A stretch of DNA of 5,507 nucleotides from a virus. Its lineage: Duplodnaviria > Heunggongvirae > Uroviricota > Caudoviricetes. Where the stretch lies: IMG/VR virus record IMGVR_UViG_3300028485_000059, positions 1 through 5,507 of that record. One strand, written 5' to 3'. Shown in pieces: positions 304-5,493 of the stretch. Position 1 is the stretch's first letter. Each line of letters starts with the position of its first letter. The notes below the pieces were generated by a model. That model did no database searches. It was not told the origin of the DNA and saw nothing but the letters and a program-made list of their open reading frames with translations. Made by a program: the position numbers and the translations under genes.

Positions 304-535
304 ACAGAACGAAAAATCTATCGCTCAAATTGCTGAGTATATCCCGCGTGCGTGCCGGGGTATGCAGTTGCAGGAAGCCAAAGCGCGCCTGGAGAAAAAA
401 ATTGCGCTCTATATCGATGACGGCTGTGATGCTGCCGTTCTTAACGCAGCGTTCGCGCCAGCTCTTAACAGTCATACGCGGGAGTCTTTTTTTTCGCGCA
501 TCGCAGCGCAGATCCGTAAAGGAGGCAACCAGTGA
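296..535 (+). CDS. hypothetical small phage protein (79 aa)
   Basis: ATG 296 with GAGGTGA Shine-Dalgarno 6 nt upstream; stop TGA 533-535 overlaps the GTG start of the next gene (GTGA). No motif recognised. Confidence 0.5.
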   Translation: MFKQNEKSIAQIAEYIPRACRGMQLQEAKARLEKKIALYIDDGCDAAVLNAAFAPALNSHTRESFFSRIAAQIRKGGNQ

Positions 536-1086
536 GCGAGATTAACTATCAGGCTCTGCGACTGGCGGCAGAAAATGCAACACCAGGCGAATGGTGTGCT
601 GATGACTACCATGGAGTAATTGCCGATGCCGGACTGAACGCCAATTACTACATAGCATCATGCTCAGGACCAGATAATCGCGCCAATAAACGATTCATAG
701 CCGCCGCCAATCCTGCCACCGTCTTGGCGCTGCTAGATGAGCTGGAAGCAGCAGAGAAGCGAAACGCTGAATTACAAAGCGAGAATGCATACATCCGCAA
801 CCGGTACAAAGAACTGGACCTATTAATCGGGAAAAACATTCTGGTCATGCAGGCTGCCATTATCGAATGGCAGGCAACTGGCGACGCTAAGAGCGGACTG
901 GCATGGATTTATAACACACTGTTTGGCCCTGGCGAATTACCGGACGAATCTGAGAAAGATGCTCAGGCCTACTTTAATCGCAAATATGCACCGATTGACG
1001 AAAAGCTCATGGCGCTTCACAAGTGGTTTTGGGAACAAAGTGAAGCCGAGCGCGCCGCCGCCAACATTGGTGTGAAGGGGAAGTGA
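532..1086 (+). CDS. Ead/Ea22-like family phage protein (184 aa)
   Basis: GTG start with strong AAAGGAGG Shine-Dalgarno. N-terminal QALRLAAENATPGEW and internal FIAAANPATVLALLDELEAAEKRNAEL match my recollection of the Ead/Ea22-like family of lambdoid/P22-like prophages. Assignment is from memory, not a search. Confidence 0.7.
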   Translation: MSEINYQALRLAAENATPGEWCADDYHGVIADAGLNANYYIASCSGPDNRANKRFIAAANPATVLALLDELEAAEKRNAELQSENAYIRNRYKELDLLIGKNILVMQAAIIEWQATGDAKSGLAWIYNTLFGPGELPDESEKDAQAYFNRKYAPIDEKLMALHKWFWEQSEAERAAANIGVKGK

Positions 1087-2040: not shown

Positions 2041-2314
2041 CCTGCAACTTGCCGTCAAAGGTGAATACTTCGATGCAATGATTCGCGGAGAGAAAACAGA
2101 AGAGTATCGCCTGTGTAATGACTACTGGAATAAGCGAATTATGTTCCGCGAGTATGACCGCCTGATTATCACAAAGGGATATCCGAAGCGCGACGACTAC
2201 AGCCGCAGAATTGATGTTCCGTATGACGGATATGAAATCAAGACAATCACACATCCACACTTCGGTGATAAACCGGTAAAGGTGTTCGCGATAAAGGTAA
2301 ATATTGATGGCTAA
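2033..2314 (+). CDS. ASCH/DUF3850-like (PUA-fold) domain protein (93 aa)
   Basis: The ORF track begins at 1952, but GTG at 2033 has a perfect AGGAGG Shine-Dalgarno 6 nt upstream and overlaps the previous stop (GTGGCTAA). N-terminal LQLAVKGEYFDAMIRGEKTEEYR resembles the ASCH/DUF3850 pattern (…YF..I..G.KT.E.R). Confidence 0.55.
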   Translation: MANLQLAVKGEYFDAMIRGEKTEEYRLCNDYWNKRIMFREYDRLIITKGYPKRDDYSRRIDVPYDGYEIKTITHPHFGDKPVKVFAIKVNIDG

Positions 2315-2645
2315 ATCAGCAGCAGAGCGCAAATCCGCTCAGAGAGCCAGACAAGCTGAATCCGGTGTACGTAAGCTGGAGATTGTGCTTGATGCTCAGG
2401 AAATTGAAATGCTGGAGCGTAACTGTGCCACGCGTCGCCCCGGGCGTGCGCCTTACGAATTTGGTGAGTATATAGCGTTACTGATCCGCCAGGATGATGT
2501 ACGCGTGCGCGGGCGTATAAAATCGATCAGCAGAAAACGTTGCGGTAAGTGCGGCGAGAGAGTTCCAGTTAATTCATGCCCGTGTAATGGTGACTCGCAA
2601 TGCTGGGTGACTAAAGGCTGGCATGAAACGAAATTAATAGTGTGA
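2307..2645 (+). CDS. hypothetical Cys-rich protein, putative DNA-binding/regulatory (112 aa)
   Basis: ATG 2307 overlaps the upstream stop (ATGGCTAA). C-terminal cysteine cluster CGKCGERVPVNSCPCNGDSQCW (C-x2-C-x9-C-x-C-x5-C) looks like a zinc ribbon. N-terminal RKLEIVLDAQEIEMLERN…YEFGEYIALLIRQ has strand-helix-helix character. Last gene before the terminase leader. Confidence 0.55.
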   Translation: MAKSAAERKSAQRARQAESGVRKLEIVLDAQEIEMLERNCATRRPGRAPYEFGEYIALLIRQDDVRVRGRIKSISRKRCGKCGERVPVNSCPCNGDSQCWVTKGWHETKLIV

Positions 2646-2653: not shown

Positions 2654-2693
2654 GAGTAGATTATGCATGATGAATTTGATGGTTTTGAATACT

Positions 2694-2720
2694 GCCGCCA
2701 ACTATGGCGGCTTTATTTTG
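2694..2720 (+). terminator. rho-independent terminator in the terS leader
   Basis: 7-bp GC-rich stem GCCGCCA / TGGCGGC (2694-2700, 2705-2711) with ACTA loop, followed by TTTATTTT (2712-2719). Confidence 0.65.
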
Positions 2721-2723
2721 CAT

Positions 2724-2754
2724 GGTACTATTACCAAAACGGTAACTATTACCA
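2724..2754. repeat. two tandem dyad-symmetric sites (GGTACTATTACCA / GGTAACTATTACCA) just upstream of terS
   Basis: Exact 10-mer ACTATTACCA at 2727-2736 and 2745-2754 (period 18 bp). Each unit is internally palindromic (GGTA-CTAT-TACC and GGTAA-CTA-TTACC). Confidence 0.5.
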
Positions 2755-2762
2755 CGGTGGTT

Positions 2763-3359
2763 ATGATGCCTGCTGAACCTAAAACCTATAAACGCAAATC
2801 AACGCAATTTAAGCCACTAACAGCAATGCAGGAGGCTTATTGCCAGTCATACATCAAAACGCCTGAAAACCAGACTCAGGCAGCGATTAATGCAGGATTC
2901 TCCCCAAATACAGCGGCAGTTAAAGCCAGTGTAATGATGCGCGATGAACGCATTCAAAAACGGATTGCCGAGTTGATGGAGGAGCGCAACAAACGAATGC
3001 GCGTCAGTGCTGATTACGTTCTCATGCGCCTGGTGGAGATCGACCAGATGGACGTGATCGACATCCTCAGCGACGATGGGAGCCTTAAACCAATCCATGA
3101 GTGGCCGAAAATCTGGCGCACTACGCTTAGCGGCTTTGATCTGTCATCGACCATCATGAACATGAACGAGGATTCGATAGAGACAATCCTCAAAAAAATT
3201 AAATGGCCTGACAAGGTGAAGAACCTCGAACTGATTGGTAAGCACGTCGACGTCAACGCGTTCAAAGAACGCATGGATGTTAATGTGAATGTGACAATCG
3301 CTGATCGCATAGCAGCAGCCAGGAAGCGACTCAAAGAACGTCAGGATGGTAATCAGTGA
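2763..3359 (+). CDS. terS: terminase small subunit (Terminase_2-like)
   Basis: QTQAAINAGFSPNTAAVKASVMMRDERIQKRIAEL matches the helix-turn-helix signature of Terminase_2-type small subunits. Stop overlaps the terL GTG start (GTGA at 3356-3359). Start set at ATG 2763 (ATG 2766 also possible) rather than the track's 2667, because 2667-2762 holds the terminator hairpin and the dyad repeats. Confidence 0.75.
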   Translation: MMPAEPKTYKRKSTQFKPLTAMQEAYCQSYIKTPENQTQAAINAGFSPNTAAVKASVMMRDERIQKRIAELMEERNKRMRVSADYVLMRLVEIDQMDVIDILSDDGSLKPIHEWPKIWRTTLSGFDLSSTIMNMNEDSIETILKKIKWPDKVKNLELIGKHVDVNAFKERMDVNVNVTIADRIAAARKRLKERQDGNQ

Positions 3360-4870: not shown

Positions 4871-4907
4871 GGATAAAACAAAGCCAGCTCATAGGCTGGC
4901 TGTTTGT
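4871..4907. terminator. bidirectional intrinsic terminator between convergent terL and the DUF2829 gene
   Basis: Stem AGCCAGC / GCTGGCT (4882-4888, 4895-4901), loop TCATAG. On the - strand it is followed by UUUGUUUUAU (strong); on the + strand by GUUUGU (weaker). A second hairpin TATCCTC-TGGT-GAGGATA lies at 4858-4875. Confidence 0.6.
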
Positions 4908-4917
4908 GACATGTCAC
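4906..4917. promoter_or_regulatory. 12-bp perfect palindrome GTGACATGTCAC (copy 2)
   Basis: Exact repeat of the 14-mer TGTGACATGTCACG seen at 2641-2654; sits between the bidirectional terminator and the stop of the - strand DUF2829 gene. Confidence 0.5.
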
Positions 4918-4921
4918 GGTG

Positions 4922-5218
4922 TTATTGAATTACAATCCAATCATCAGATAGCAGATCGGTTTGAGATGCCAGCCACGGTACAAAGCAACCGTCAGCAGTT
5001 TTCATCCCAATCCACGGTAGAAGTTTAACGCCAGGTACAAATGTATACTCGTCACCGCATGTAACGTCAAATCGCCAATCGTTCGGAGTGGCCGATTGCG
5101 GTGGCTTAACCAGTTGCAGATACATGCCTTTGCCATTCCATCCGGCACGTGCAATGCGCTTACCATCTTTGAGTGATGACAAAGCAGTGGAGAAAGATAC
5201 TGTTGATGTTTCGCTCAT
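4922..5218 (-). CDS. DUF2829 family protein (Tad2-like; candidate anti-defence protein), 98 aa
   Basis: ATG at 5218 (- strand) with AAGGTGAG Shine-Dalgarno. Motifs ARAGWNGKGMYLQL and KTADGCFVPWLASQTDLLSDDWIVI match the DUF2829 signature as I recall it (GWNGKGM…MKTADG…PWLASQTDMLAEDW). Flanked by intrinsic terminators on both sides and on the opposite strand to the terminase operon. Confidence 0.7.
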   Translation of the reverse strand: MSETSTVSFSTALSSLKDGKRIARAGWNGKGMYLQLVKPPQSATPNDWRFDVTCGDEYTFVPGVKLLPWIGMKTADGCFVPWLASQTDLLSDDWIVIQ

Positions 5219-5416: not shown

Positions 5417-5493
5417 TGGCGTGGCATGCAGGATTCGAACCTGCGACCAACCGCTTAGAAGGCGGTTGCTCTGTCCAGCTGAGCTAATGCCAC
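5417..5493 (-). tRNA. tRNA-Arg (anticodon UCU), 77 nt including encoded CCA
   Basis: Reverse complement folds as a cloverleaf: acceptor GTGGCAT/ATGCCAC (7 bp), D-arm GCTC…GAGC, anticodon stem ACCGC/GCGGT with loop CU-UCU-AA, T-arm GCAGG-TTCGAAT-CCTGC, discriminator G, CCA. T-arm matches enterobacterial argU as recalled, but the acceptor and anticodon stems differ. Confidence 0.85.

Follow-up and report, generated by a model that had tools for sequence, protein, structure and literature searches.

Our analysis reveals that the gene for a 112-aa phage protein is accompanied, in phages of several types, by a 12-bp palindrome, GTGAC-N2-GTCAC, placed in most cases at or next to the gene's own stop codon. 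In particular, the palindrome is present at the stop codon of the family gene in 174 of 180 IMG/VR viral loci, which represent three branches of the family (offset −4 at 170 of these sites and +6 at the other 4). As the simplest reading of these sequences, we strongly infer that the palindrome is the protein's cognate site in duplex DNA. It is highly probable, judging from the same comparisons, that the protein binds this site as a dimer, and gene and candidate operator appear to form a self-contained cassette that is inherited as such and moves between phage types. The protein family had previously been catalogued (PHROG 536; RefSeq 'transcriptional regulator'). New are the family-wide gene-site cassette, the matS-type half-sites at 2-bp spacing, and three terminator-adjacent copies of the palindrome in Uetakeviruses.

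Gene order in the window

The window, by which we mean the whole 5.5-kb stretch of DNA that was analysed (5,507 nt), comes from an epsilon15/phiV10-type temperate podophage or prophage of the genus Uetakevirus, with best matches, at ~96–97% identity, to vB_EcoP_PAS61, O157 typing phages 9 and 10, ZX5, TL-2011b, and phiV10. The plus strand carries, in order, small 'ea-type' accessory genes, an Ead/Ea22-like gene, a DUF551 gene, an ASCH-like gene, the 112-aa ORF (2307–2645), an intrinsic terminator, terS, and terL; a minus-strand Tad2-like gene and then tRNA-Arg(TCT) follow 3′ of terL. Positions 1–2030 match the 'ea' accessory region of lambdoid phage mEp460 at 99.1% identity and phage 1720a-02 at 97.5%, and the remainder of the window, beyond ~2030, is of Uetakevirus type. 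Since the first 2 kb are 99% identical to lambdoid mEp460, the accessory block is mosaic; sequence comparison places a clear mosaic junction near 2030, where the DUF551 gene ends. The Eae/Ead/DUF551/ASCH/gp49 block is an accessory 'ea-type' module that, in Uetakeviruses, happens to close the early-right operon, and this is how the gene comes to occupy a Q-like slot.

Two hairpins punctuate this arrangement. The intrinsic terminator closing the early-right operon (2694–2720, plus strand) comprises a 7-bp stem with 6 GC pairs, followed by TTTATTTTG; it lies ~40 nt past the first palindrome, and its counterpart in epsilon15 is annotated as a terminator. A GC-rich hairpin after terL (4882–4901) is followed by a minus-strand T-run and terminates the Tad2-like gene.

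The 112-aa protein has a predicted ribbon-helix-helix fold and a Cys4 knuckle

The gene for the 112-aa protein (2307–2645, plus strand) starts with an ATG that overlaps the stop of the preceding gene (ATGGCTAA) and ends with a TGA at 2643–2645. The protein matches phrog_536 over its full length (E=2.1e-53; residues 1–111 on profile positions 2–114 of 115), a family labelled 'transcriptional regulator' by PHROG and RefSeq alike; the orthologues of the protein are epsilon15 gp49 and phiV10 p55, and the records of these two cite similarity to N15 gp46. All three proteins have the same length, the same Cys pattern, and the stop-codon palindrome, and nothing substantive sets them apart from the protein in the window. 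Identity is 76–97% to Uetakevirus proteins (76% to epsilon15 gp49) and 34% to N15 gp46. Clustered at 90%, the homologues number 545, and an exhaustive search gave 144 representatives at 50% clustering; in the ~400 of 5,426 complete E. coli genomes that bear the segment (~7%), PGAP names the product 'hypothetical protein'. The label 'transcriptional regulator' on gp49, p55, and gp46 is an annotation, not an experimental result: no experimental characterisation of the three proteins, and nothing relevant on the palindrome motif, gp49, or Uetakevirus transcription, was found in the searchable literature. The paper on a ZX5 'regulatory protein' concerns the repressor, the anti-repressor, and the integrase.

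Searches with the protein gave no above-threshold model in Pfam, NCBIfam, or PADLOC, the only hint being the sub-threshold 'LexA regulated protein' YbfE (E=0.065); PADLOC likewise gave no match that would point to a defence or anti-defence role. The AlphaFold2 model of a single chain (mean pLDDT 91.7) consists of a helix (residues 5–19), an extended segment (20–29), a second helix (30–42), a long helix (52–75), a Cys knuckle, and a C-terminal helix (100–108). The model has the N-terminal strand and two helices that define the ribbon-helix-helix (RHH) superfamily and resembles solved RHH proteins, in agreement with the strand-helix-helix N-terminal region predicted in the preliminary description. 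At the level of sequence profiles, an RHH search gave sub-threshold matches only (RHH_5, RepB-RCR_reg, and RHH_1, at E 0.013–0.07, in 1–2 of 53 diverse family members each). A Foldseek search against the PDB returned nothing significant, and a PDB sequence search returned no match.

The predicted DNA-binding module (2319–2531, plus strand) comprises a basic helix, residues 5–19, with the motif RK-x-AQR-x-R, and the RHH core (strand about 20–29, helices 30–42 and 52–75). The Cys-rich knuckle (C79, C82, C91/C93, C99) and the helix 100–108 (2535–2630, plus strand) form a probable structural Zn site, for which no solved analogue was found. The C-terminal half modelled by itself reaches pLDDT 89.5 and has no meaningful structural neighbour. 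In an alignment of the 53 members, M1, R8, C79, and C82 are invariant, and R13, E54, L59, P87, G95, and C99 are conserved in at least 90%; the family consensus reads RK-x-AQR-x-R ... PY...EY...LIR-x-D ... C-x-K-C-G..LP..C.G...GD..CW. Cysteines are present at positions 40, 79, 82, 91, 93, and 99 of the protein, with spacing C-x2-C-x8-C-x7-C. The C-terminal cluster of five cysteines previously described is therefore present (C79, C82, C91, C93, and C99), but the conservation pattern in the alignment indicates that the conserved metal site is Cys4 and not five cysteines. A member of the family is a probable zinc-containing DNA-binding protein and, as it travels with its site through many unrelated phages, very likely a regulator.

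The palindrome accompanies the gene across phage types

The gene-accompanying site is seen in podophages and in lambdoid, N15-like, P2-like, and Mu-like phages, down to ~30% protein identity. Family members at 31–38% identity still have an exact site, against a chance expectation of ~0.006 per 6-kb locus, and the N15-like and P2-like flanks, ~615 kb in total, hold just three other copies. Of five Uetake-like 'exceptions' without an exact site, four have single-base variants and the fifth is a record cut off at the stop codon. The N15 gp46 gene (34% identity) ends in cGTGACTGGTCACg, and a P2-like Yersinia phage has a homologue (42% identity) with tGTGACGCGTCACa at its end. In the 46-kb genome of the lambdoid phage Chlobot, GTGACATGTCAC occurs once, 6 nt 3′ of a homologue with 86% identity that lies between exo/bet and xis/int in the pL accessory region, and a decayed KplE1-like prophage retains the site beside a pseudogene. 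In a seven-context alignment covering four phage types, the ten half-site positions alone are invariant. The half-site pentamers are not enriched genome-wide, and no conserved partner gene was found among the neighbours compared, no neighbour being common to the phage types.

The Chlobot homologue (L011, PP925838.1, 17149–17487) appears to be mis-annotated as two CDSs, a 'UmuD-like protein' (17009–17326) and a short 'transcriptional regulator' (17347–17487); tblastn aligns all 112 residues in a single frame.

Some genomes carry further or displaced sites. N15 (46 kb) and Vibrio phage K233 (36 kb) have three sites each; in N15, Chlobot, and K233, sites end 10–19 nt 5′ of the next start codon, within operons. 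In an Aeromonas phage there are two near-sites of identical sequence, of which one lies 25 nt 5′ of the homologue. Among distant members, one locus (L204) has an exact site on the stop codon, and a Mu-like prophage (L205) has the site inside the last 40 nt of the gene. The three N15 sites (L013; GTGAC-TG/CA-GTCAC at 28550, 33237, and 39269) are located at the gp46 stop codon, in the intergenic region between genes 33 and 32, and inside repA (gene 37), the last being at odds with a gene-boundary rule. In another distant locus (L201), the palindrome lies over the stop of the upstream DUF1441 gene, 3 nt 5′ of the ATG of the family gene and not at its own stop; in both L201 and L203 the family gene is directly 3′ of a DUF1441 (PF07278) gene. 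The site in the L201 branch is upstream of the gene, resembling a classical operator.

Because the motif holds a TGA on either strand, placement at a stop codon is the most economical in a packed genome. A pac or terminase-related site was considered and rejected: the cassette is also present in cos phages with unrelated terminases (N15, lambdoid, and P2-like).

Three copies adjoin terminators in Uetakeviruses

The window contains two exact copies of GTGACATGTCAC. Site 1 (2642–2653), the candidate cognate site, overlaps the TGA stop of the gene, and site 2 (4906–4917) has the post-terL hairpin on one side and the stop (4922) of the minus-strand Tad2-like gene on the other; the chance expectation for a second copy is 0.17 per window even with two mismatches allowed. 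Site 3 falls beyond the window, where the structural operon ends and immediately ahead of that operon's terminator (epsilon15 19517, phiV10 19493, PAS61 32674). Three copies are present at equivalent places in five of five complete Uetakevirus genomes (epsilon15, phiV10, PAS61, Tyrion, and PAT1), a tally that includes one single-base variant each in phiV10 and PAT1. In particular, copy 1 is on the stop codon of the gp49 orthologue, ~40 nt 5′ of the terminator; copy 2 is directly past the post-terL hairpin, 4–6 nt from where the first accessory gene on the minus strand stops; and copy 3 is at the end of the long head/tail operon, 1–3 nt 5′ of its terminator. The DNA of epsilon15 is ~80% identical to that of the E. 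coli phages, yet carries the same three copies. Site 2 is found, and the adjacent hairpin is kept, in 58 of 72 further, related loci; since the sequence beyond differs from phage to phage, site 2 marks the edge of the variable accessory region.

Natural single-base variants of site 1 are GTGACATGTTAC, shared by phiV10 and two IMG/VR contigs, and GTGAAATGTCAC, carried by another two (together loci L005 (phiV10), L072, L074, L045, and L054). The PAT1 variant of site 2 is GTGACAGGTCAC.

Two other readings of the palindrome found little support. A promoter within it, with GTGACA as the −35 element, is weakly plausible at site 1 alone, where a match of 9/12 is present (GTGACA-18-CATGAT; in epsilon15, read by eye, GTGACA-17-TAAATT), and inspection of the flanks showed none at sites 2 and 3. 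An RNA hairpin or anti-terminator pairing is disfavoured by folding: as RNA, the palindrome forms a 4-bp hairpin of −1.2 kcal/mol, no better than shuffled sequence, and the z-score of −2.4 for a 106-nt region is driven by the terminator itself.

Repressor-type sites precede the late operons. ATTACC-N5-GGTAAT sites are annotated as immunity-repressor sites in epsilon15, where they also lie 5′ of the head operon, the tail-fibre gene, the lysis cassette, and the RuvC gene, and flank the repressor gene. Because such sites precede them, the late operons may be directly repressor-controlled, which suggests that they have their own promoters and do not require read-through. In the window, two sites of this type lie between the terminator and terS, ATTACCAAAACGGTAAC at 2730–2746 and ATTACCACGGTGGTTAT at 2748–2764, the second overlapping the ribosome-binding site and start codon of terS.

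The half-sites are those of matS

The half-sites of the palindrome are identical to those of E. coli matS, the site of MatP, which has the 13-bp consensus GTGACRNYGTCAC (PMC6907758, PMC3603311). The phage site differs from matS in spacing, being always N2 (12 bp, in more than 180 loci) where matS is N3 (13 bp), and no matS-spaced N3 site was found at any family gene stop codon among these loci. It differs also in distribution: the phage sites are at gene boundaries on phage DNA, whereas matS is spread over a chromosomal domain. As described in the passage of PMC8669397 that cites Dupaigne 2012, MatP contacts matS through α4, a basic helix preceding the RHH strand, and through β1. The phage protein has a similar layout, with a basic helix just before the RHH strand as the most conserved N-terminal feature of the family, but is without MatP's four-helix bundle and C-terminal coiled coil and has a Cys4 zinc knuckle. 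Strand residues track the central dinucleotide of the site by branch (RKLEIVL with AT, NEIRARL with GC, RRDWVL with TG), a correspondence that spans three or four independent clades only. By analogy, the protein may read DNA as MatP does without belonging to the MatP family. Homology to MatP was rejected, as no sequence homology was detected (hhalign probability 0.5%), and the likeness is kept only for site and layout.

Bobay et al. reported no canonical matS in 500 prophages. The phage site, 1 bp shorter than matS, is plausibly orthogonal to the host system. The identical half-sites raise the question of cross-talk with the host Ter-macrodomain system or deliberate orthogonality to it, a question sharpened by the 1-bp difference in spacing and by the reported avoidance of true matS in prophages.

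Relationship to small RHH regulators and to DksA/TraR

The protein resembles Arc, Mnt, CopG, MetJ, the ParD/TacA antitoxins, and TraM/PcfF in being small, in having a strand-helix-helix layout, and in its expected action as a dimer on a short palindrome. It resembles NikR in that NikR joins an RHH domain to a metal-binding C-terminal domain. In contrast to small RHH regulators, whose operators are normally at the promoter, the phage family typically has its site at the 3′ end of the gene; the basic helix and Cys4 knuckle are foreign to small RHH families, and matches to Pfam RHH models are marginal (2–3 of the 53 members). The comparisons describe a regulator of RHH type that presumably binds a specific DNA site and is unusual both in its zinc module and in where its operator lies.

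Early regions of phage genomes commonly contain TraR-like genes. The protein gives a weak profile match to TraR/YbiI (E about 0.03) over the helix and CxxC...PxG...C region. Membership in the DksA/TraR C4 zinc-finger family was rejected: the fourth Cys of the CxxC-x17-CxxC finger is missing, there is no match to Pfam zf-dskA_traR, and the isolated C-terminal half is without a structural match. The long helix cannot be a secondary-channel probe, because the same helix is the second helix of the RHH core.

The family coexists with Q, Ogr, and Mor

The preliminary description had placed the protein in the slot of the Q antiterminator and proposed an uncharacterised late regulator there. Its description of the locus was correct: a 112-aa ORF at 2307–2645, a stop codon inside a palindrome, and a terminator 3′ of it; a protein about half the size of lambda Q; and a Cys pattern unlike the Ogr/Delta finger. 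The Cys spacing is C-x2-C-x8-C-x7-C, against C-x2-C-x22-C-x4-C in Ogr/Delta. Its placement of the gene last before the terminator and terS holds in all Uetakeviruses examined. The Uetakevirus order of regulator gene, probable binding site, terminator, and late genes parallels Q, QBE/pR′, and tR′ of lambda, and the zinc-binding Cys residues of lambda Q-type and Ogr/Delta proteins have probable counterparts in the phage family. In contrast to the lambda arrangement, no conserved promoter or pause element is apparent at the site (the 9/12 match being at site 1 only), and there is no homology to Q or to Ogr: neither the protein nor any of the 53 family members gave a Pfam match to a Q family (Q-lambda, Q82, or Q21), and a search of PDB sequences gave no match.

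As a property of the family, a late antiterminator in the Q slot does not stand, as members coexist with Q, Ogr, or Mor at unrelated map positions. Specifically, in Chlobot the gene and site coexist with the phage's own N and Q; N15 gp46 is in the mid-early region and coexists with the Q-like late activator gp40; the homologue in the P2-like Yersinia phage follows gpA and coexists with a genuine Ogr; and in the Mu-like prophage the gene is just 5′ of gemA/mor. A DNA-binding regulator remains very probable; the replacement of Q, which had been drawn from map position, is not supported. Of the two roles earlier suggested for the palindrome, operator binding is strongly backed by the co-inheritance of gene and site, and classical autoregulation is unlikely, because in most branches the site is 3′ of the gene and not at its promoter. 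In Uetakeviruses alone, the protein may nevertheless have a special role at the three terminators, antitermination included.

Replacement of Ogr in P2-like phages was also rejected, since a true, unannotated Ogr is present. It is encoded in Yersinia phage vB_YenM_31.17 (L199, OM140653.1) at 32431–32643 (plus strand; 56% identity to P2 Ogr, E=3e-27), where the record instead has a minus-strand 'hypothetical protein' (32350–32628) whose translation looks non-coding. A tblastn search with P2 Ogr found nothing in epsilon15 or PAS61.

A boundary element is the preferred explanation

The explanation we prefer, to which, taken whole, we assign a probability of roughly 0.4, is that the protein acts as a boundary element between transcription units. 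A small RHH dimer, stabilised by its C-terminal Cys4 zinc knuckle, would have the 12-bp GTGAC-N2-GTCAC as its cognate operator; by analogy to MatP and matS, the conserved basic helix would read the invariant GTGAC arms and the β-ribbon the variable central dinucleotide. In Uetakeviruses, the protein would be made last from the early-right operon and would occupy three sites that adjoin intrinsic terminator hairpins and mark the 3′ ends of one transcription unit apiece, namely the early operon, terS-terL, and the head/tail operon. Bound there, it would serve as a roadblock or insulator that reinforces the terminators, so that less transcription would run from one module to the next, or enter or leave the variable accessory genes, while the late operons would be driven by their own repressor-controlled promoters. 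This proposal builds on the fold, the conserved residues, the site conservation, and the site positions described above. A barrier is favoured as the simplest effect of a protein that sits on the DNA ahead of RNA polymerase; the direction and purpose of the effect on transcription are weakly indicated.

The same positions could instead serve a positive late regulator. A DNA-tethered protein that contacts elongating RNAP and suppresses termination at the adjacent hairpins would let early transcription continue into the packaging, head/tail, and tail-spike/lysis genes. The gene's position as last in the early operon, directly 5′ of the terminator and terS in all Uetakeviruses examined, would suit such a role, as would the presence of three sites at three terminators, the failure to detect a Q or Ogr homologue in epsilon15 or PAS61, and the weak resemblance of the helix/Cys region to the RNAP-binding TraR/YbiI zinc finger (E ~0.03, hhalign probability 55%). 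That resemblance, however, is without structural support and misses the fourth Cys of the motif; elsewhere the family coexists with Q, Ogr, or Mor at non-late positions; repressor-type operators and promoter-like sequences are present at the late operons themselves; the site 2 palindrome is downstream of the hairpin on the late strand; and no RHH antiterminator is known. We consider this unlikely, and rather unlikely also the wider proposal of a new late-switch component, DNA-tethered and local at inter-module terminators, that either suppresses or enforces termination. Q and N load once and then travel with the polymerase; a DNA-tethered, local terminator factor would differ from them in this respect.

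Three further explanations dispense with transcriptional control by a DNA-bound protein at these sites. In a bolder variant, the cassette may be a phage-private mark of MatP/matS type, with the protein bridging, condensing, or anchoring phage DNA or repelling host SMC complexes (MukBEF/Wadjet-type). We regard this as improbable: MatP homology, the four-helix bundle, and the coiled-coil tetramerisation tail are missing, the spacing is N2 and not N3, genomes with a single site could not form intramolecular loops, and exact placement at gene boundaries better suits a transcriptional role. The location of all three Uetakevirus sites exactly at junctions between conserved modules and variable accessory genes, with sequence to the right of site 2 that differs from phage to phage, could also mean that the palindrome is a recombination or mosaic-junction signal and that the protein binds elsewhere, for example at host promoters; a gene with a 3′ palindrome recalls integron cassettes, and the block is demonstrably mosaic. 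This is quite improbable, as no recombinase is linked to the sites, each variable region has a site at just one of its edges, other accessory genes lack a site where this gene nearly always has one, and 12 bp is too short for homologous exchange. Least probable is an element acting at the RNA level, in stop-codon context, translational coupling, or 3′-end stability, possibly as protein-bound RNA. The overlap with the stop codon and the GGAGG ribosome-binding site and ATG immediately 3′ in N15 and Chlobot would fit it, but the hairpin is shuffled-like, the arms are invariant rather than covarying, copies are found in both orientations relative to genes, within repA, and 5′ of genes, and RHH domains bind duplex DNA. 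What probability remains belongs to host-directed or other unforeseen roles.

Significance of the gene-site pair

A 'hypothetical protein' becomes a testable pair: a protein of 112 aa and a defined 12-bp site whose three positions are mapped. The phages concerned include O157 typing phages, serotype-converting Salmonella phages, and prophages that leave the segment in ~7% of complete E. coli genomes. Podophages of the epsilon15/phiV10 type appear to have no Q, Ogr, or Mor homologue, and the pair may bear on the timing of their late genes. The same cassette is present in lambdoid, N15-like, P2-like, Mu-like, and Vibrio phages, so that one biochemical finding would carry over to the annotation of a whole family (144 representatives at 50% clustering). 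The natural single-base variants of the site are ready-made cases for binding specificity, and a compact, orthogonal protein/operator pair would serve as a synthetic-biology part.

Accessory genes and terS annotation in the window

The Tad2-like gene (4922–5218, minus strand; 98 aa) encodes a Thoeris anti-defence 2 domain (Pfam PF11195, E=3e-24) and, with tRNA-Arg(TCT) (5417–5493, minus strand), occupies the variable region between terL and the head genes, where other Uetakeviruses have different genes. A Tad2-like gene is also present in the distant locus L204, two genes upstream of the family gene. The Ead/Ea22-like protein (532–1086, plus strand) has an N-terminal Ead_Ea22 domain (Pfam E=1.6e-19), and its residues 72–173 match PADLOC's DpdH model (E=2.8e-37). 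DpdH belongs to Dpd, a defence system based on 7-deazaguanine DNA modification; the match ties a phage accessory protein to a defence-system protein.

The start of terS is annotated inconsistently, as window 2667–3359 or 2763–3359. In phiV10 and PAS61, the start is the equivalent of window position 2686 (TTG), and a 230-aa ORF is open from 2667; both N-terminal extensions take in the terminator hairpin and the two repressor-type sites. The epsilon15 start is the equivalent of 2763, giving a protein of 198 aa, and agrees with the Pfam Terminase_2 match.
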